Source: a virus (lineage: Duplodnaviria > Heunggongvirae > Uroviricota > Caudoviricetes). Taken from it: DNA of 29,281 nucleotides. The notes beneath the pieces are model-generated. The model saw only the letters and a program-made list of their open reading frames with translations. It did not search any database and was not told the DNA's origin. Location: IMG/VR virus record IMGVR_UViG_2671180846_000020. One strand, written 5' to 3'. Made by a program: the position numbers and the translations under genes. This document shows positions 231 through 22,579 of the stretch, piece by piece; positions within the stretch are counted from its first letter, which is position 1; every line of letters begins with the position of its first letter.

Positions 231-806
231 TTAAGGATTCATTAAGCAATGTCGCAACCACCAATAAATCCGCTTAAGAACATGAAAATTGATTACTGGT
301 ATAAAGCGCTTACAGTTGTTGGCGCTGCGTTGTTTGTCTTTAATGGAACGTCTTTTTTTGACAGATATCCCGTTGTTCCATTGGGTTTTTTGTCCTCCGG
401 CATCTTTTTTATTGGTTTGGGGGAGTGGATTAATCACCCTCTCATAGTGAGATTTATTGGTCCTGGAGTTTGGACTCGTGGATATAATCGTTCTTCGTGC
501 GCACTCGGTATCATCTTCGACATACTTGGTTGTTTCCTGATTGTTACAGGAGTCGTCAAGTTCTTCTGATGTAAAACCGCAAATGGGGCACGTAACGGGA
601 ATTTTGAAAAGCGTTTCTCCGGGTTCCAGAACAAAATTTTCTGCGGTCTGATTTTGCTTCTCATATTTGTGCTCCGCGTCATTGTGAGAGCACATTCTTA
701 TTCTGAGTGCCTGTTTAAACTCACTGAAGCTGAGAGCTTCTTCGCCTTCGGCAAGGCCTTCGAAGTATTCTTCGTAAGCCTTTTCCATGATTGTGTTGAA
801 ATCCAT
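231..806 (-). CDS. hypothetical leftward early protein (YdaG-like N-terminus), possibly extended by read-through
   Basis: Start MDFNTIMEKAYEEYFEG at 806 with AGGTGA SD 5 nt upstream, immediately after the stop of the upstream 51-aa gene (operon-like packing). The N-terminal ~90 aa are acidic and protein-like; the C-terminal part is K/N/R-rich and is antisense to the 3-TM ORF, so the true 3' end is uncertain. Confidence 0.4.
   Translation of the reverse strand: MDFNTIMEKAYEEYFEGLAEGEEALSFSEFKQALRIRMCSHNDAEHKYEKQNQTAENFVLEPGETLFKIPVTCPICGFTSEELDDSCNNQETTKYVEDDTECARRTIISTSPNSRTNKSHYERVINPLPQTNKKDAGGQKTQWNNGISVKKRRSIKDKQRSANNCKRFIPVINFHVLKRIYWWLRHCLMNP
249..569 (+). CDS. small putative membrane protein (three predicted TM helices)
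   Basis: ORF of 106 aa with three hydrophobic stretches of about 18-20 residues separated by charged loops; AAGGA Shine-Dalgarno about 10 nt upstream of the ATG. It overlaps a minus-strand ORF antisense, so only one of the two may be real in the overlap. Confidence 0.4.
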   Translation: MSQPPINPLKNMKIDYWYKALTVVGAALFVFNGTSFFDRYPVVPLGFLSSGIFFIGLGEWINHPLIVRFIGPGVWTRGYNRSSCALGIIFDILGCFLIVTGVVKFF

Positions 807-807
807 A

Positions 808-963
808 TCACTCACCTGAGTTTCTTTCCAGCCAGCGACGGGCACCATTTTCGGTTTTAAACGTTTTGCTTTTGGTATACGTCATCGCGGTGAACGTGCC
901 GTCCTGGTTGGGGAACACGCCACATACCAGAGATTCGCTGTTGCCAAGATCGATAGTATCCAT
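808..963 (-). CDS. small hypothetical protein, 51 aa (Rac YdaF-like by size and position)
   Basis: ATG at 963 (MDTIDLGNSESLVCGVFPNQDGTFTAMTYTKSKTFKTENGARRWLERNSGE) preceded by a GGGGA/GAGG SD; the stop abuts the next leftward start at 806. The YdaF assignment is from memory of size and synteny, not a search. Confidence 0.45.
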   Translation of the reverse strand: MDTIDLGNSESLVCGVFPNQDGTFTAMTYTKSKTFKTENGARRWLERNSGE

Positions 964-1078
964 GCTGACCTCATTTCCCCTTAACGCCGGGGTAGCGGAA
1001 CTGTTTGCTGAGAACACCGTGCGGTGTCTTGATGGAGGTAATTTAGTTTTCTCATTATTTTTCGTCAAGGTTTTTTGA

Positions 1079-1091
1079 TGAGAAAACTCAA
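1079..1091. promoter_or_regulatory. putative left operator half-site pair (TGAGAAAACTCA)
   Basis: Inverted arms TGAG/CTCA around AAAA; nearly the same motif recurs at 1614-1627 on the other side of the repressor gene, an OL/OR-like arrangement. Confidence 0.4.
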
Positions 1092-1155
1092 GTGTTGGCG
1101 CAAGATAAAGCCAATACATTGAAATGTAAGGCTTTAAAATTTTGTGAAGGGATGA

Positions 1156-1563
1156 TTATTGATGCTTGTTGCGTTTGCGAGCCTCTAATAGCTCGGTGAA
1201 CAGGCGATTAAAATTCTCAACGCGGGCGCGGAGTTCGCTGAGTTGTGCTTGTTGCTCTGATTTAGGAAGTGCGCGATACAAACGCAGCATCTCTAACTCA
1301 TCTTCCGATAAGTCTAAGGCACTATCGAGTGAAACAGGGGGAGCTGGTGTTTTGTCCTCGTCGCCAAACAGTATCCAAGTTGGTGAACATTGCAATACCT
1401 CGGCGAGGCGATGCAAATTTTGCCCGCGCGGGGCTGTATGGTCACTTTCCCATAATGAAATTGATGAGCCAGATACGCCAGCAGCTTTGCTTAAACCGTT
1501 TTGACTTAAGCCTACCTGCTTACGTCTTTCTCTAATGCGTTGACCTAAAGTTTTCTCGTTCAT
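1156..1563 (-). CDS. phage repressor, XRE-family HTH, no S24 peptidase domain (RacR-like)
   Basis: N-terminal HTH-like segment (TLGQRIRERRKQVGLSQNGLSKAAGVSGSSISLWE) in a protein of only 135-152 aa; sits divergent to a Cro-like gene. Start taken at the internal Met (1563); the ORF track allows a start at 1614. Confidence 0.7.
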   Translation of the reverse strand: MNEKTLGQRIRERRKQVGLSQNGLSKAAGVSGSSISLWESDHTAPRGQNLHRLAEVLQCSPTWILFGDEDKTPAPPVSLDSALDLSEDELEMLRLYRALPKSEQQAQLSELRARVENFNRLFTELLEARKRNKHQ

Positions 1564-1640
1564 ATTTAGATATCTTAATAACCCTTGACTTGAGATTCCT
1601 TGAGTGATTAGCATTGAGAAAACTCAATATTGGAGGTGCG
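1564..1640. promoter_or_regulatory. divergent promoter/operator region between repressor and Cro-like gene
   Basis: TTGACT -35-like hexamer, repeated TTGAG half-sites, the inverted repeat TTGAGAAAACTCAA at 1614-1627, then a GGAGGTG SD before the ATG at 1641. Confidence 0.5.
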
Positions 1641-1868
1641 ATGTTTAAATCAGACGTAATTAATTTTTACGGTACGAAAGCCAAAGTAGCGAAAGCTGCT
1701 GGCGTTGACCCATCTGCTGTTTCTCAATGGCAAGAGCTGGTTCCTGAAGGTCGCGCGATGCGTCTACAGGAGGCATCTGGCGGCGAGCTTCTGTATGATC
1801 CCAAGGTTTATGACGAATATCGTAAGACGAAGCGGGCGGGGCGGTTGAACAATGAAAATCACTCCTGA
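1641..1868 (+). CDS. Cro-like / YdaS-family HTH regulator
   Basis: 75-aa protein with the motif KAKVAKAAGVDPSAVSQWQ typical of Cro/YdaS-type small DNA-binding proteins; divergent from the repressor and first gene of the rightward operon. Confidence 0.65.
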   Translation: MFKSDVINFYGTKAKVAKAAGVDPSAVSQWQELVPEGRAMRLQEASGGELLYDPKVYDEYRKTKRAGRLNNENHS

Positions 1869-2373
1869 ACAGGCTCGTGAGGCTCTGGATGCCTGGATAT
1901 GTCGACCAGGAATGACACAGGAGCAGGCGACGATATTAATCACTGAAGCATTCTGGGCTTTGAAAGAGCGCCCGAACATCGATGTTCAGCGTGTCACAGA
2001 TGAAGGTGGCGCGGTTGATCAGCGAGCACTTGGCGTTAATCGAGTGAAGATATTCGAACGCTGGAAGGCTATCGACACCAGGGATAAGCGTGAAAAGTTC
2101 ACGGCGCTAGTGCCTGCAATTATGGAGGCTATTCGGATTAATGATTTCAGGTTGTATCGTGAAATTAGTGACGGAAAAAGCATCACGTACATGATCGCCG
2201 GGTTAAACAAAGAATATGGCGATGTGGTGGAGTCCGGACTGCTTTTTGCTGATCCTGCCGTAGTGGATCGTGAAACTGACGAACTTATAGAAAAAGCAAT
2301 TGCTTTCAAACTTGCGTATCGACAGCAATACCAACAAAAAGCTGGATGGAATTATGAGCCTTCTTTTTGCTGA
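1852..2373 (+). CDS. YdaT-like protein (position-based), function uncertain
   Basis: 173-aa ORF overlapping the Cro-like stop and followed by the replication initiator, the position YdaT occupies in Rac-type prophages. The family assignment is not verified by alignment. Confidence 0.55.
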   Translation: MKITPEQAREALDAWICRPGMTQEQATILITEAFWALKERPNIDVQRVTDEGGAVDQRALGVNRVKIFERWKAIDTRDKREKFTALVPAIMEAIRINDFRLYREISDGKSITYMIAGLNKEYGDVVESGLLFADPAVVDRETDELIEKAIAFKLAYRQQYQQKAGWNYEPSFC

Positions 2374-3779: not shown

Positions 3780-5450
3780 AATGTCCCCAGACAATTCTCT
3801 GGGGGATTTTTCATGATCAAAGAGACTGTTACGATGAGTCATAAGGAACTCCACCGACTTCAGATTATTCAGGAGTCAATTAATCGACATATTACTCAGG
3901 AACAAGCTGCGGCACGCATTGGCATTTCTATTCGGCAGGTTAAACGTCTGGTGCAACGGTATAGAAATGAAGGGCCTTCTGGTCTGGTTTCCCACCGACG
4001 TGGAAAGCGTCCTAATAATTCCTTTTCTACTGAATTCAGAGCAACAGTAATTTCACTCCTCAAAGGCCGTTACGCTGATTTTGGACCTACGTTTGCGTGC
4101 GAAAAATTGCGCGAGATACACGGTTTATCTTTATCCGTTGAAACTCTCAGAAAGTGGATGATAGAAGAGGGGTTATGGCGTGAACGCCGTCGTAAAATTG
4201 CCCGTATATATCAACGCCGCATGCGACGACCATCTTACGGTGAACTGATCCAGATTGATGGCTCACCTCATGACTGGTTTGAAAATCGAGGCCCCAGATG
4301 TACACTGATCGTTTTCATTGATGATGCCACCAGTGCGTTGATGGCGTTGCGTTTTGTGCCTGCTGAAACAACCCGGGCTTACATGGAAACCCTCCGGGGT
4401 TACCTTAATGATCATGGCGTACCGCTCGCTCTCTACTCTGATAGACACAGTATATTCAGGGTAAATAACCCAGAGCGGGAAGGTGAGCTGACCCAGTTCA
4501 CTCGTGCGATAAAGACACTGGGCATCGAGCCAATCCATGCCAACAGCCCGCAGGCAAAAGGGCGGGTAGAGCGCGCCAATCAGACACTACAGGACAGGCT
4601 GGTCAAAGAAATGCGGCTTCAGAATATCAGTGATATTGAAACAGCAAATGCATGGTTGCCGACCTTTATTGAAGCCTATAACAACCGGTTCGCTACGTCG
4701 CCTCGTACTACTGATAATGCTCATCTTGATGTGCACCATTCTGAAGAGGAACTGGGTTATATCTTCAGCCTACAGGCGAAGCGCGTTCTGTCTAAAAATC
4801 TCACTTTCCAGTACAAAAGCAGTGCGTTTCAGGTACGCAGTGAGGGCCGGGGATATCGACTTAGGCATTCGGTTGTTACTGTATGTGAGAACTTTGACGG
4901 TGAAATTAACGTTCTGTATGACGGGAAAGCGCTGGGCTGGGAAAAGTATGTTGATGGCCCGGAGCCTATACCACTGGATGATGAAAAGAGTGTCCATGAA
5001 CGAGTGGATAATGCCCGTATTGATTTACGCTCAAAATACTATGTTAAATCTAAAGCTGACCATCCCTGGCTTACGCGCCGAACGCAAAGTCATCAGCAAG
5101 TTAAGCCCCCGAAGTTACCTAAAAAGAAGCCTGATCCCGATAAAATAGATTGAAACCAAGATCGATTCGGTTGAGTGCATATCCATTCATAGGGTAGATT
5201 CTTAAGTCGCGTTTCTGATGTTCATTTTCGGGTGGTTTGTTACTTGTTTTACCGGGGATATGCCAGAAACGCGCTGAGTCAGTCTGGGCGGTGCGCGTAA
5301 TGAGGCGTTATGGTAAATAGCCTATGCTAATGTCCGCTAAGAGCAAGAAGCGGAAGTTGGCAGTTTTGTGGACTGTCCCCACAAAAGTGACTACAGAAAT
5401 AGTTGCAATTCATAATTGATCATGGGTTGTCAGTTAAACTCGTGGCGATT
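3780..5450 (+). mobile_element. insertion sequence carrying a single DDE transposase (IS481/ISNCY-like); ends not resolved
   Basis: One 446-aa transposase gene with no phage role sits between the replication genes and flxA. I could not identify terminal inverted repeats or a target-site duplication by eye, so the boundaries are approximate. Confidence 0.45.
3813..5153 (+). CDS. DDE transposase, integrase-core (rve) type with N-terminal HTH
   Basis: N-terminal HTH (ITQEQAAARIGISIRQVKRLVQRY) and a D-D-E catalytic pattern (LIQIDGSPHDW ... LALYSDRHSIF ... QAKGRVERANQTLQDR) with the basic residue after E typical of the retroviral-integrase fold. Confidence 0.85.
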   Translation: MIKETVTMSHKELHRLQIIQESINRHITQEQAAARIGISIRQVKRLVQRYRNEGPSGLVSHRRGKRPNNSFSTEFRATVISLLKGRYADFGPTFACEKLREIHGLSLSVETLRKWMIEEGLWRERRRKIARIYQRRMRRPSYGELIQIDGSPHDWFENRGPRCTLIVFIDDATSALMALRFVPAETTRAYMETLRGYLNDHGVPLALYSDRHSIFRVNNPEREGELTQFTRAIKTLGIEPIHANSPQAKGRVERANQTLQDRLVKEMRLQNISDIETANAWLPTFIEAYNNRFATSPRTTDNAHLDVHHSEEELGYIFSLQAKRVLSKNLTFQYKSSAFQVRSEGRGYRLRHSVVTVCENFDGEINVLYDGKALGWEKYVDGPEPIPLDDEKSVHERVDNARIDLRSKYYVKSKADHPWLTRRTQSHQQVKPPKLPKKKPDPDKID

Positions 5451-7100: not shown

Positions 7101-7157
7101 NNNNNNNNNNNNNNNNNNNNNNNNNNNNNNNNNNNNNNNNNNNNNNNNNNNNNNNNN
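7101..7157. other. run of 57 N (gap or masked sequence)
   Basis: Uninterrupted N characters in the supplied sequence; it interrupts the hok gene. Confidence 0.99.
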
Positions 7158-7318: not shown

Positions 7319-7570
7319 ATGATGAACATCGAAGAACTGCGTAAAATTTTTTGTGAAGATGGCCTCTATGCTGTGTGCGTTGAAAATGGAAATCTTGTTA
7401 GTCATTACCGCATTATGTGTTTGCGAAAGAATGGGGCTGCGTTAATTAATTTTGTGGATGCTCGGGTCACGGACGGATTTATCTTGCGCGAAGGTGAGTT
7501 TGTCACTTCATTACAGGCATTGAAAGAGATCGGAATAAAAGCTGGCTTTTCTGCTTTTTCAGGAGAATAA
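7319..7570 (+). CDS. rem: Rem-like small protein, 83 aa
   Basis: 83-aa ORF with a GGAAGGA SD; length and position between hok and the DUF968 gene match rem of Qin. The sequence itself was not verified against a reference. Confidence 0.5.
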   Translation: MMNIEELRKIFCEDGLYAVCVENGNLVSHYRIMCLRKNGAALINFVDARVTDGFILREGEFVTSLQALKEIGIKAGFSAFSGE

Positions 7571-10366: not shown

Positions 10367-10666
10367 AAAAATTCCTTAATACTGATAACTTGGCGCACTA
10401 TACACACGTTCCTGAAGAAAGCTATAGTTTTTTGATGGGGTTGAAGATGGCTGGATGTCTAAAATAAACATTGCTTCATATGTTCAACTATGCGTTAATG
10501 ATTGCGTCGGTTTGAAGAACAGACGATATACGAAGTAGTTTACTAAAGCAGTTCTCATTTCAGGTGTTATTCACTTATTCCTTCTTTGAGTCTCTCCAAT
10601 TAAGTACGAAGTCGTTTCTGTTATGCAAACCATTTATGCCGAAAGGCTCAAGTTAAGGAATGTAGA

Positions 10667-10882
10667 ATGTCAAATAAAATGACTGGTTTAGTAAAATGGT
10701 TTAACGCTGATAAAGGTTTCGGCTTTATTTCTCCTGTTGATGGTAGTAAAGATGTGTTTGTGCATTTTTCTGCGATTCAGAATGATAATTATCGAACCTT
10801 ATTTGAAGGTCAAAAGGTTACCTTCTCTATAGAGAGAGGTGCTAAAGGTCCTGCAGCAGCAAATGTCATCATTACTGATTAA
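10667..10882 (+). CDS. cspB: cold shock protein CspB-like
   Basis: 71-aa protein [38 protein letters not shown]... with the RNP motifs of CspA-family proteins; long upstream leader. Confidence 0.8.
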
Positions 10883-11163
10883 AATTCATCGCTCGTCTGT
10901 ATACGATAACGAAGAAGGCTGATGCCTGAGTAGAGATACGGACAGAGTAGTGAATATTGGATCTCTTTAATAAAAAGTAAGGAGGTCCAATACATGAAAC
11001 AATGGCTAGCATATTTGGCAAAATCTTAATCAGGAAAAGTATGCTAACCATTGTGGTGAAGTGCAGGTTTGCTGCATGAATAGTTTCACAGCAGAAGCTA
11101 ACTGCTGGCATCGCAAAACAAAGTGCGTAAGTGGATGACTCCCACAAAAAGCACCACAATCTC

Positions 11164-13191: not shown

Positions 13192-13553
13192 GGTAATATT
13201 AAATCGGAACATTTACATCGCGGAATGTAAAATTTAAATAAAAAGGACTCTTCCATGAGCCAAAATTCCTGAAATCTTAAGGGTAAGATAAAAGGTCTTA
13301 ATCAGAATGACACGTTTTATTAATAAATAAAGCTATTCTTTCATTGCTGTGTTTTTCTTTACAAAAGTAATCCTTGCTATGGGTGGTTAATCATGCGTTA
13401 ATGGTGTTCTGGTTTGTTACAAATTTATCTGAAGCAGTCATTGTTATAATTTTATTATTTGTACCTCTTGAGATTTCCTTGTTGGTTTTTCTCTCTGATA
13501 TTTTTTTTCGGACCATTCTGCCCAAGGGCTAATTTCTTCAAAAGGTAATAATT

Positions 13554-13766
13554 ATGTCTAACAAAATGACTGGTTTAGTGAAATGGTTTAACCCTGAAAA
13601 AGGTTTTGGTTTCATCACGCCGAAAGATGGCAGCAAAGATGTGTTTGTCCATTTCTCAGCAATTCAGAGCAACGATTTCAAAACATTAACTGAGAATCAG
13701 GAAGTTGAATTTGGTATTGAGAACGGACCTAAAGGTCCTGCCGCTGTTCATGTAGTGGCGCTTTGA
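13554..13766 (+). CDS. cspI: cold shock protein CspI-like
   Basis: 70-aa protein [70 protein letters not shown]; long AT-rich leader upstream. Confidence 0.85.
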
Positions 13767-13967
13767 GGTAGACAATATTACAAACCATATTCACTTTAGA
13801 TGCCCGTGTTGTCATGGTTCCCAGTATAGAACATCATCTTTTGATGTTTCTGACATGAATCCTTTCGGGGCAAAATGTATCTTTTGTAAATCAATGATGA
13901 TTACATTTGATAATATTTCACAATACTTAAATGCCAGCCGTCTGTCGTTGGATTTAAAAAAGTGAAA

Positions 13968-20620: not shown

Positions 20621-22579
20621 ATGCAGGCTGGTCACCAGAGTGACGCGGATATTTATATTTATGACGAGATTGGTTTCTGGGGTGTTACAGCGAAGCAGTT
20701 TATCAGTGATCTGAATGCACTGGGCGATATCACCCACATTAATCTCCATATTAATTCACCGGGTGGCGATGTCTTTGAAGGCATCGCCATTTTTAATGCG
20801 CTGAAAACACATGGTGCGTCCATTACCGTTTATGTCGACGGTGTGGCGGCGTCAATGGCGTCGGTCATTGCGATGGTAGGAAACCCGGTCATTATGCCGG
20901 AAAACTCCTTCATGATGATTCATAAACCATTTGGCTTTACGGGCGGTGATGCGGAGGACATGCGCACCTATGCCGACCTGCTCGATAAAGTTGAGGCGGT
21001 TCTGTTACCCGCTTATGCACAGAAAACCGGGAAAACCACCGATGAAATTGCTGCCATGCTGGCGGATGAGACCTGGATGTCCGGTGCCGAATGTCTGGCA
21101 CAGGGATTTGCTGATCAGGTGACACCAGCCGTTAAGGCAATGGCATGTATTCAGTCAAAACGTACAGAGGAATTTAAAAAGATGCCGGAATCCATTCGAA
21201 ATATGATTACTCCGCCACGCAACAGTGCTCCACGCGTACAGGATGATGGACCTGCAGCCTCCCGGACGCCAGTGCAGGCAGCAGCACCCGTGGTGGATGA
21301 AAACAGCATCCGTGCGCAGGTCCTGGCAGAGCAAAAAGCGCGTGTAAACGGTATTAATGATCTGTTTGCCATGTTTGGCGGGCGTTATCAGTCGTTGCAG
21401 GCTCAGTGTCTTGCCGATCCTGAATGTTCGCTGGAGCAGGCCCGCGAAAAGCTGTTGAACGAGATGGGGCGCGAGTCCACGCCATCCAATAAAAATACCC
21501 CGGCTCATATTTATGCCGGTAACGGTAATTTTGTGGGGGACGGGATCCGCCAGGCGCTGATGGCGCGCGCCGGGTTTGAAAAAACTGAACGTGATAATGT
21601 CTACAACGGGATGACCCTGCGTGAATATGCCCGTATGTCACTGACTGAACGTGGTATTGGTGTTTCCAGTTATAACCCGATGCAGATGGTCGGTGCGGCG
21701 TTCACACACAGTACGTCTGACTTCGGTAATATTCTGCTGGATGTTGCGAACAAAGCCATTCTGCAGGGCTGGGAAGATGCCCCTGAAACCTATGAACAGT
21801 GGACGCGGAAAGGTCAGTTGTCTGATTTTAAAATTGCCCATCGTGTGGGTATGGGGGGCTTCAGTGCTCTGCGTCAGGTGCGTGAAGGGGCAGAATATAA
21901 ATACGTCACCACCGGAGATAAACAGGCCACTATTGCACTGGCGACCTATGGCGAGCTGTTCAGTATCACCCGTCAGGCCATTATCAATGATGATCTGAAT
22001 ATGCTGACCGATGTCCCGATGAAGCTGGGCCGTGCGGCGAAATCCACTATTGCCGATCTGGTTTATGCCATTCTGACGTCTAACCCGAAAATCTCCACAG
22101 ATAATGTAAGTCTGTTCGATAAAGCGAAACATGCAAACGTACTGGAGAGCGCGGCAATGGACGTGGCATCGCTGGATAAAGCCCGCCAGTTGATGCGCGT
22201 TCAGAAAGAGGGTGAGCGTCATCTGAATATTCGTCCTGCGTTCGTACTGGTACCGACGGCGATGGAGTCTGTTGCTAACCAGGTCATTCGCTCCTCAAGT
22301 GTCAAGGGGGCTGACATTAACGCCGGTATTATTAACCCGGTGAAAGATTTTGCGACCGTTATTGCAGAGCCTCGTCTTGATGATAACAGCCAGACCACCT
22401 TCTACCTGGCTGCGTCCAAAGGCTCCGATACGATTGAAGTGGCTTATCTCAACGGTGTGGATACGCCATATATTGATCAGATGGAGGGCTTCAGTGTGGA
22501 TGGCGTGACAACGAAAGTGCGTATTGACGCTGGTGTTGCGCCAGTTGATCACCGCGGCCTGGTGAAATGTACGGCGTAA
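20621..22579 (+). CDS. prohead protease (ClpP/S49-like) fused to an HK97-fold major capsid protein
   Basis: The N-terminal third has the ClpP-like motif INSPGGDVFEGIAIFNALK...ASMASVIA; the C-terminal portion resembles HK97-type major capsid proteins. It is one continuous frame of 652 aa from the ATG at 20621. Confidence 0.75.
   Translation: MQAGHQSDADIYIYDEIGFWGVTAKQFISDLNALGDITHINLHINSPGGDVFEGIAIFNALKTHGASITVYVDGVAASMASVIAMVGNPVIMPENSFMMIHKPFGFTGGDAEDMRTYADLLDKVEAVLLPAYAQKTGKTTDEIAAMLADETWMSGAECLAQGFADQVTPAVKAMACIQSKRTEEFKKMPESIRNMITPPRNSAPRVQDDGPAASRTPVQAAAPVVDENSIRAQVLAEQKARVNGINDLFAMFGGRYQSLQAQCLADPECSLEQAREKLLNEMGRESTPSNKNTPAHIYAGNGNFVGDGIRQALMARAGFEKTERDNVYNGMTLREYARMSLTERGIGVSSYNPMQMVGAAFTHSTSDFGNILLDVANKAILQGWEDAPETYEQWTRKGQLSDFKIAHRVGMGGFSALRQVREGAEYKYVTTGDKQATIALATYGELFSITRQAIINDDLNMLTDVPMKLGRAAKSTIADLVYAILTSNPKISTDNVSLFDKAKHANVLESAAMDVASLDKARQLMRVQKEGERHLNIRPAFVLVPTAMESVANQVIRSSSVKGADINAGIINPVKDFATVIAEPRLDDNSQTTFYLAASKGSDTIEVAYLNGVDTPYIDQMEGFSVDGVTTKVRIDAGVAPVDHRGLVKCTA

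Follow-up and report, generated by a model that had tools for sequence, protein, structure and literature searches.

Positions 1030 to 1640 of the virus record IMGVR_UViG_2671180846_000020 very probably form the switch that controls immunity in a Qin-type lambdoid prophage with a heteroimmune allele of the DicA repressor. The window, meaning the whole stretch of 29,281 base pairs (bp) that was analysed, is a Qin-type lambdoid prophage of Escherichia coli O26:H11. Within the switch, a short repressor gene lies between copies of one inverted repeat, and these copies are placed on or beside two predicted promoters. The family of the repressor, its lack of an S24 domain, the positions, conservation and covariation of the sites, and the presence of the gene rem are observations, and it is from these that we infer the binding of the repressor to the sites and an action of the antirepressor candidate Rem.

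The elements of the proposed switch are as follows.

1040 to 1068, minus strand: predicted leftward sigma-70 promoter, the counterpart of dicBp, with -35 TTGACG (1068 to 1063), a 17-bp spacer and -10 TAAATT (1045 to 1040).

1042 to 1055, minus strand: predicted operator O_L1, ATGAGAAAACTAAA, over the -10 and the spacer, with one degenerate arm (TTAG for TGAG).

1078 to 1091, plus strand: predicted operator O_L2, ATGAGAAAACTCAA, 9 bp upstream of the leftward -35.

1156 to 1563, minus strand: repressor gene of the DicA family, 135 amino acids, with its stop codon at 1156 to 1158 and its start at 1563.

1565 to 1578, strand not applicable: imperfect palindrome TTTAGATATCTTAA, abutting the repressor start codon.

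1585 to 1614, plus strand: predicted rightward promoter, the counterpart of the dicC promoter or PR, with -35 TTGACT (1585 to 1590), an 18-bp spacer and -10 TAGCAT (1609 to 1614).

1614 to 1627, plus strand: predicted operator O_R, TTGAGAAAACTCAA, which begins at the last base of the -10.

1641 to 1868, plus strand: Cro-like regulator of the DicC family, 75 amino acids, matching the NCBIfam model NF007282 (DicC) over its full length with 165.3 bits against a cutoff of 130.

7319 to 7570, plus strand: rem, candidate antirepressor, 83 amino acids, 100% identical to Rem of E. coli K-12 at the protein level.

The repressor matches the curated NCBIfam model for DicA (NF007257) with 239.4 bits against a cutoff of 101, and the match spans residues 1 to 135 of 135. 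DicA of K-12 is also 135 amino acids long and likewise passes this model. The two proteins are 57% identical over 127 amino acids, and their differences concentrate in helices 2 and 3 of the helix-turn-helix (HTH). Pfam matches of the repressor are to Xre/Cro-C1 HTH models only (HTH_3). Its sequence matches in the PDB are confined to residues 1 to 72, and the best of these are to the DNA-binding domain of P22 C2 (1adr, E=8.3e-16; 2r1j, E=4e-15). The divergent Cro-like protein matches Pfam P22_Cro (E=3e-16) and is 70% identical to DicC of K-12. The start codons of the two genes are 77 bp apart, and this divergent arrangement is the one that characterizes the DicA family.

The original prediction held that so short a repressor has no room for an S24 domain, and it proposed a domain search for HTH_XRE and Peptidase_S24. 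That search found the HTH and gave no Pfam match to Peptidase_S24 at E<=0.01 or even at E<=1, whether the protein was read as 135 or as 152 amino acids. The repressor therefore lacks a C-terminal domain of the LexA/CI type (Peptidase S24). Its only Ala-Gly dipeptide is A28-G29, which lies inside the HTH, and a reading of the sequence found none in the linker (residues 68 to 90) where an interdomain cleavage site would be placed. The longer reading, which starts at the most upstream ATG (1614), was rejected; its start falls inside the operator and the -10, and the homologues and RefSeq all use the start that gives 135 amino acids.

The further description of the protein as consisting of an HTH only does not hold. 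About 65 residues follow the HTH, and they are covered by the DicA model and conserved across the family (LPESE...RARVxNFNxLFEELL). This C-terminal half is kept across heteroimmune DicA alleles. It is probably helical, since a single-sequence AlphaFold model of low confidence (predicted local distance difference test, pLDDT, 62) contains helices only, and the model is a weak indication against a beta-rich S24 fold. Given the absence of an S24 domain, derepression should not use RecA-stimulated autocleavage. This expectation, already part of the original prediction, is also the published view of the family, in that DicA (135 amino acids, without an Ala-Gly bond) was grouped by Lemire et al. with the non-cleaved Gifsy repressors that are inactivated by antirepressors (PMC3121763).

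There are exactly two copies of TGAGAAAACTCA in the window, at 1079 to 1090 and at 1615 to 1626, and the second is the 12-nucleotide core of TTGAGAAAACTCAA at 1614 to 1627. These two are also the only exact matches to TGAG-N4-CTCA, of which 0.44 are expected by chance. The first is 65 bp past the stop codon of the repressor gene, and the second falls in the interval from the repressor start (1563) to the Cro-like start (1641), so that the same motif indeed stands on both sides of the repressor gene (1079 to 1090 and 1614 to 1627), as first noticed. A scan of the remainder of the prophage, which had been suggested at that time, adds a third and degenerate copy, ATGAGAAAACTAAA, on the minus strand at 1042 to 1055 with two mismatches, which was absent from the original prediction. 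The sole other match at up to two mismatches is TTGAAAAAACTGAA at 21576 to 21589, in which both arms are broken. The same three copies are present in the isolated temperate phage HannyBb, whose repressor is 100% identical. Neither 34 kb of the O26 prophage nor the 35 kb of HannyBb that were examined contain another copy with both arms intact, and the motif is thus found in the immunity region only. A literature search for the motif as an operator sequence of this allele, made in an incomplete library, yielded unrelated primer sequences only (human, fish and viral).

Repetition by itself is unremarkable in this DNA. There are 147 distinct 12-mers that recur in the window, and a whole-window search with the 14-mer at up to three mismatches found four matches where 3.7 are expected, which is not above chance. 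Such counts are what one would see if the copies were a chance repeat, or a recombination remnant of mosaic phage modules, with no regulatory role. However, one 13-mer occurs in both of the intergenic regions that border the repressor gene (192 and 77 bp), and a shared stretch of that length was reached in only 2 of 5,000 dinucleotide shuffles, and the copies are palindromic and lie on promoter elements. In diverged Buttiauxella DNA the core stays unchanged, other alleles carry other palindromes at the same positions, and the motif is strongly associated with this repressor in IMG/VR. Thus, the significance of the motif comes from its location, its palindromic arms and its conservation rather than from its count. 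A motif at background frequency would look different from one that is restricted to the immunity region, conserved in diverged relatives and tied to a repressor allele. On these sequence comparisons, a role-free repeat appears effectively refuted, and we regard it as extremely improbable.

A promoter scan of positions 900 to 1700 gave exactly two promoter-like sites, each of which is overlapped or abutted by the motif. Both calls are matches to the sigma-70 consensus at 9 of 12 positions. O_R with its flanking bases reads ATTGAGAAAACTCAAT (1613 to 1628), in which the inverted arms are perfect over 6 bp, and it is expected to extend over the transcription start. The leftward promoter points toward ydfA, and its -35 block is conserved in Buttiauxella. 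Of its two operators, which are 36 bp apart from centre to centre, O_L2 has a 12-bp core that is invariant in Buttiauxella amid otherwise diverged DNA, and the TGAGAAAACTAA portion of O_L1 is invariant in a three-species alignment.

This arrangement parallels that of K-12, in which the palindrome TTGTTAGTCATAACTAACAA and its variants occupy three equivalent positions, where the sequence here is (A)TTGAG-AAAA-CTCAA(T). O_R has the position of the K-12 operator Oc. The K-12 rightward promoter (TTGACT, a 17-bp spacer and TATCTT) is followed directly by GTTAGTTATGACTAAC (PMC3441716). Its leftward promoter (TTGACC, a 17-bp spacer and TAATCT) has TGTTAGTCATGGCTAATC over the spacer and -10 and a weaker palindrome copy upstream of the -35, whereas here the best leftward copy is the one upstream of the -35. 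DicA of K-12 binds Oc (TTGTTAGTCATAACTAACAA) beside the dicC promoter in vivo, one base change in an arm abolishes this binding, and DicA at Oc represses dicC and promotes the expression of dicA (Yun et al., PMC3441716). There is no TTGTTAGTCATAACTAACAA in our sequence, where TTGAGAAAACTCAA is found at the equivalent positions. Since both the operator and the recognition helix differ from those of K-12, the two systems should be heteroimmune.

By analogy with these promoters, the copy that the original prediction placed downstream of the repressor gene is O_L2, a predicted OL-type operator and one of two on the leftward early promoter. The motif therefore flanks the repressor gene for the same reason of layout that OL and OR flank cI in lambda, and the layout is the ordinary lambdoid order of OL, repressor and OR.

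Another conserved element lies between the repressor stop codon and O_L2. The block CAATACATTGAAATGTAAG at 1112 to 1130, which contains the small palindrome ACATTGAAATGT, has hardly changed in the Buttiauxella loci. The scan of 900 to 1700 reported no terminator-like site at this place. The block may be what is left of a terminator, or another protein may bind there.

When one genome per species was scanned, 13 loci were obtained that permit the sites to be compared with the proteins. In two Buttiauxella loci the repressors are 74-76% identical to the one described here and have the same recognition helix (S-D/G-SSISLWES). All three motif copies are at matching positions, with 35-36 bp from O_L2 to O_L1 and approximately 535 bp from O_R to O_L2, and the 12-bp cores do not vary at all, while the mean column identity of the alignments is 77-81%. 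The recognition helix is SGSSISLWES here and SHVSVSQWER in K-12, and the loci with other helices carry other palindromes.

Helix SHVSVSQWER, in the K-12 type and Citrobacter NCU1: flank-shared palindrome TGTTAG..CTAACA.

Helix HVTISQWE, in Symbiopectobacterium, Yersinia and Rosenbergiella: TTGTTAGATTT..CTAACAA types.

Helix SSVSVFKWE, in E. whittamii and LSJC7: TAACTTTTGTTA.

That helix and site vary together is the strongest argument at hand for the repressor as the protein that reads the sites. There are at least 120 loci in IMG/VR with an exact match to the 16-mer ATTGAGAAAACTCAAT, from which only approximate fractions can be drawn. Among the 120 matches listed, 78 are within 150 bp of a gene whose product is 74-100% identical to the repressor described here. 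Such a gene is missing beside the remaining 42, a number that by a rough estimate is about the chance level. Where the listed loci of this allele include enough flanking sequence, O_L2 and O_L1 are almost always present as well (73 of 74). From these comparisons we infer that the three sites are operators of this repressor. Among 5,426 complete E. coli genomes, the segment from 1030 to 1640 that holds the repressor gene and the operators is present in 797 (about 15%), nearly always as a single copy and never as more than two copies per genome. Carriers of this immunity allele include O26 and O157 strains of enterohaemorrhagic E. coli (EHEC).

The Cro-like protein must also be considered as the reader of the palindrome. 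The repeated palindrome could be mainly an operator for this DicC-type Cro, with the repressor reading another sequence. A lambdoid Cro binds the same operator regions as the repressor, and the Cro-like protein has an HTH of its own (P22_Cro). We nevertheless consider this improbable. In a C. braakii locus the Cro helix is essentially the same (D-R/P-SAVSQW) but the repressor helix and the main operator differ, which indicates that the operator tracks the repressor. In addition, Oc of K-12, at the equivalent position, is bound by DicA in vivo (PMC3441716). It is likely that both proteins bind overlapping sites, which is compatible with recognition of the palindrome by the repressor.

The imperfect palindrome TTTAGATATCTTAA at 1565 to 1578 behaves differently from the three operators. 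It resembles the main operator with each arm changed at the third base. It is invariant among E. coli, the two Buttiauxella loci and the C. braakii locus, the last of which shares the Cro recognition helix and has a different repressor helix and main operator. At the same place in K-12 there is an analogous second palindrome, TTAGCATTAGCTAA, which we take to be either Om or Oa. DicA of K-12 does not bind the predicted Om and Oa sites in the dicA promoter region (Yun et al., PMC3441716). The palindrome at 1565 to 1578 may be a weak or Cro-preferred operator, a counterpart of OR3 or 'Oa'. The idea that it covaries with the Cro helix comes from one contrast, that with the C. braakii locus. A profile-based scan of IMG/VR for a wider family gave, among the best 80 loci, near-identical copies only (96-100%).

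Taken together, these features suggest how the switch might operate. Dimers of the repressor would read the inverted repeat of 14-16 bp, (A)TTGAG-AAAA-CTCAA(T). At O_R, which abuts the rightward -10, the repressor would block the dicC-like cro gene, the ydaT/cII-like gene and the replication genes, and it may in addition stimulate its own weak promoter, by analogy with DicA of K-12. Binding at O_L2, upstream of the leftward -35, and at O_L1, over the -10, would silence the operon of ydfA, dicF, dicB, ydfD and the exonuclease gene. The likeliest route of escape would be through the small antirepressor Rem, and a second route might be a stochastic or stress-driven flip of the DicA/DicC bistable switch.

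The gene rem is 5.7 kb away from the start of the repressor gene and does not belong to the immunity region. In K-12, DicA represses dicBp and constitutes a bistable switch together with DicC, and the Qin-encoded Rem derepresses dicBp 165-fold (Ragunathan et al., PMC10448788). An antirepressor had been among the original guesses for induction; this agrees with the literature on the family (PMC10448788, PMC3121763) and with the presence of an identical Rem in the window. The Rem of HannyBb is 96% identical. A Rem homologue that is 69-100% identical occurs 4.1-7.4 kb away in 33 of the 38 listed IMG/VR loci of this allele that extend at least 6 kb on the cro side. There are 2,285 genomes with rem in the complete-genome set, compared with the 797 that have this immunity allele, so rem must travel with several DicA alleles.

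A similar organization is known from the Gifsy-1, -2 and -3 prophages of Salmonella, whose repressors GfoR, GtgR and GfhR are likewise small (about 136 amino acids) and uncleaved, with the antirepressor gene located outside the immunity region (PMC3121763). DicA and RacR have been named as members of this repressor group, binding of the antirepressor GftA to GtgR with release of operator DNA was shown in vitro, and Gifsy antirepressors are able to act on heteroimmune repressors (PMC3121763). The window encodes the corresponding pair, which is a small non-cleavable repressor and a small antirepressor gene (rem) outside the immunity region. The difference is in the control of the antirepressor, which in Gifsy phages is directly under LexA. 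A strict search of the whole window for the LexA box CTGT-N8-ACAG gave no match, and none is visible upstream of rem, so that the SOS box of the Gifsy type is missing. A LexA-controlled antirepressor in the Gifsy style is therefore not supported, and the absence of the box is consistent with the RecA-independent behaviour of K-12 (PMC10448788). Because rem accompanies several DicA alleles, the C-terminal half of the repressor is conserved, and Gifsy antirepressors act across immunity types, it is plausible by analogy that Rem acts on this repressor.

Derepression might also proceed without Rem in a switch that is otherwise as described. Perhaps the repressor is lost stochastically or under stress (heat or denaturant) and the loss is locked in by the Cro-like protein, or perhaps a host protease is involved. 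Derepression in K-12 that is spontaneous (approximately 1%) or induced by urea or heat is independent of rem and recA and depends on dicC (PMC10448788). Binding of DicA to Oc is weaker at 37 than at 25 degrees C (PMC3441716), and again there is no LexA box anywhere in the window. Against an escape that bypasses Rem altogether stand its 165-fold effect in K-12 (PMC10448788) and its retention in the 33 of 38 listed contigs and in HannyBb. We consider derepression without Rem to be a possibility of lower probability than escape through Rem. The two routes are compatible, and the Rem-independent flip is a serious candidate for a companion route.

Several points weigh against the switch that we favour, in which the repressor reads the three sites and Rem provides the main escape. 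It is by analogy and covariation that the repressor, and not the Cro-like protein, is taken to read the sites. The promoters are consensus matches only (9 of 12) with predicted starts, the structure model is the low-confidence one (pLDDT 62), and the IMG/VR fractions, taken from 120 listed matches, are approximate. With a repressor that is only 57% identical to K-12 DicA, the action of the identical Rem is an analogy. The co-occurrence of Rem with the allele could be mere synteny of Qin-like phages. Finally, Rem may not be the main physiological trigger, given the Rem- and RecA-independent derepression in K-12 (PMC10448788).

The N-terminal 70 amino acids of the repressor match the DNA-binding domain of P22 C2 (E=8e-16), and the Cro-like protein likewise matches the P22_Cro family. 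Operator geometry is also similar in P22, with inverted arms of 5-6 bp around a 4-bp A/T centre, although the half-site is TTAAG in P22 and TTGAG here. C2 is 216 amino acids long and has a self-cleaving S24 C-terminal domain with an Ala-Gly site, in contrast to the short half found here, which is helical in the low-confidence model and has no S24 domain.

The PaaR2/YdaS/YdaT system of CP-933P in E. coli O157:H7 and the RacR/YdaS/YdaT system of Rac likewise comprise a short HTH repressor, a divergent Cro-like gene and then a YdaT-type CII-like gene. Both also resemble the switch described here in their intergenic palindromes, which recur at a distal PL-type promoter, and in their bistable behaviour (PMC8630535). 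PaaR2, however, is reported to have little sequence similarity to DicA; its gene is transcribed together with a toxin-antitoxin pair, and its repeat is another one, GTTTAGTAA (PMC8630535). The Cro-like protein here fits P22_Cro and DicC better than YdaS, for which it is below the Pfam cutoff. The system is a member of the described DicA/DicC immunity switch, with a DNA-binding domain of the P22 C2 type and a probable escape of the Gifsy/Rem type in place of self-cleavage.

The genes around the switch agree with this assignment. Strain 11368 of E. coli O26:H11 has a prophage that is 100% identical to the window, as do many other strains, and the gene order is the one known from the cryptic prophage Qin. 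The order and orientations of ydfA through dicF and dicB (leftward), the repressor gene and the divergent dicC agree with those in K-12 Qin, which also has relBE, hokD, flxA, ydfW and ydfD in common with this prophage, in addition to the identical Rem protein. The leftward genes, as listed, are the exonuclease gene, ydfD, dicB, DicF RNA, a ydfB-like gene and ydfA, and then the repressor gene. The rightward genes are the dicC-like gene, the ydaT/cII-like gene, an O-like gene, a DUF977 gene, an insertion sequence (IS), ydfW, flxA, ydfV, relBE, hokD, rem, ydfU, a Q-type antiterminator gene, the lysis genes and the late genes. The genes closest to the switch on either side are the following.

808 to 963, minus strand: ydfA homologue of 51 amino acids (DUF1391; Pfam DUF1391, E=9e-28), named ydfA in RefSeq.

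1852 to 2373, plus strand: YdaT-type CII-like regulator (Pfam YdaT_toxin, E=1e-5; PHROG 163, CII-like activator, E=2e-40), next in the rightward operon.

The ydfA homologue is the first gene of the leftward early operon, which is the counterpart of the dicBF operon. Rfam finds no DicF within the window, where it reports only two cspA thermoregulator elements. DicF (76.7 bits in Rfam) and dicB are found 31-445 bp past the left edge of the window in the identical O26 record. The leftward operon of ydfA, DicF RNA and dicB downstream of the repressor gene therefore has the gene content and order of the DicA family.

Several other features of this prophage deserve mention. The first 25 kb of the window and the O26 11368 record show a difference of about 106 bp. 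There is an open reading frame (ORF) of 191-205 amino acids at 231 to 848 on the minus strand whose first 34 amino acids are YdfB-like (PHROG 35040 and 2061); in this region RefSeq has only a truncated ydfB, while the long ORF is the one annotated in HannyBb. A hydrophobic ORF of 106 amino acids without a family match (249 to 569, plus strand) overlaps the long ORF from the opposite strand. An intact-looking ORF for an IS1202-like transposase of the ISEsa1 family (446 amino acids, 3813 to 5153) is inserted after the DUF977 gene, and its counterpart in O26 11368 is marked as incomplete by RefSeq. A masked run of 57 N at 7101 to 7157 is located where the identical O26 record carries the hokD toxin gene, and the ORFs that cross it are translated as X. 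The two thermoregulator elements noted above are 5' leaders of the cspA type (Rfam RF01766) at 10506 to 10898 (162 bits) and 13408 to 13793 (113 bits), and they precede the prophage cold-shock genes cspB and cspI.

In contrast to K-12 Qin, the O26 prophage keeps the full set of late genes, and its immunity region is also that of an isolated phage, HannyBb. To the left of the window in NC_013361.1, a truncated excisionase gene abuts an element of the IS66 family, and no integrase is annotated in the 4.5 kb that were retrieved. The O26 copy may therefore be excision-defective, though its late genes look complete.

This switch does not represent a new kind of mechanism, and its practical value is modest. 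Its type is already well described, and the site sequence is what is particular to the allele. The analysis assigns to the immunity type of about 15% of complete E. coli genomes a specific operator sequence, a pair of promoters and a candidate antirepressor. Two further ideas are more tentative. Either Rem is a broad-spectrum antirepressor, or the repressor and the Cro-like protein prefer different sequences, and we would put the chance that at least one of these is true at somewhat less than even. The first would be possible if Rem docks on the conserved C-terminal half of the DicA proteins, as it may do, in which case one Rem could jointly derepress heteroimmune Qin-like prophages in polylysogenic EHEC strains. 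The second is suggested by TTTAGATATCTTAA, which tracks the Cro helix and not the repressor helix in the single informative contrast. Differing site preferences, if real, would make this a split-operator switch and not one with shared operators in the lambda style. More generally, the heteroimmune alleles, with their matched changes of helix and operator, constitute a natural series for the DNA specificity of the P22 C2-type domain.

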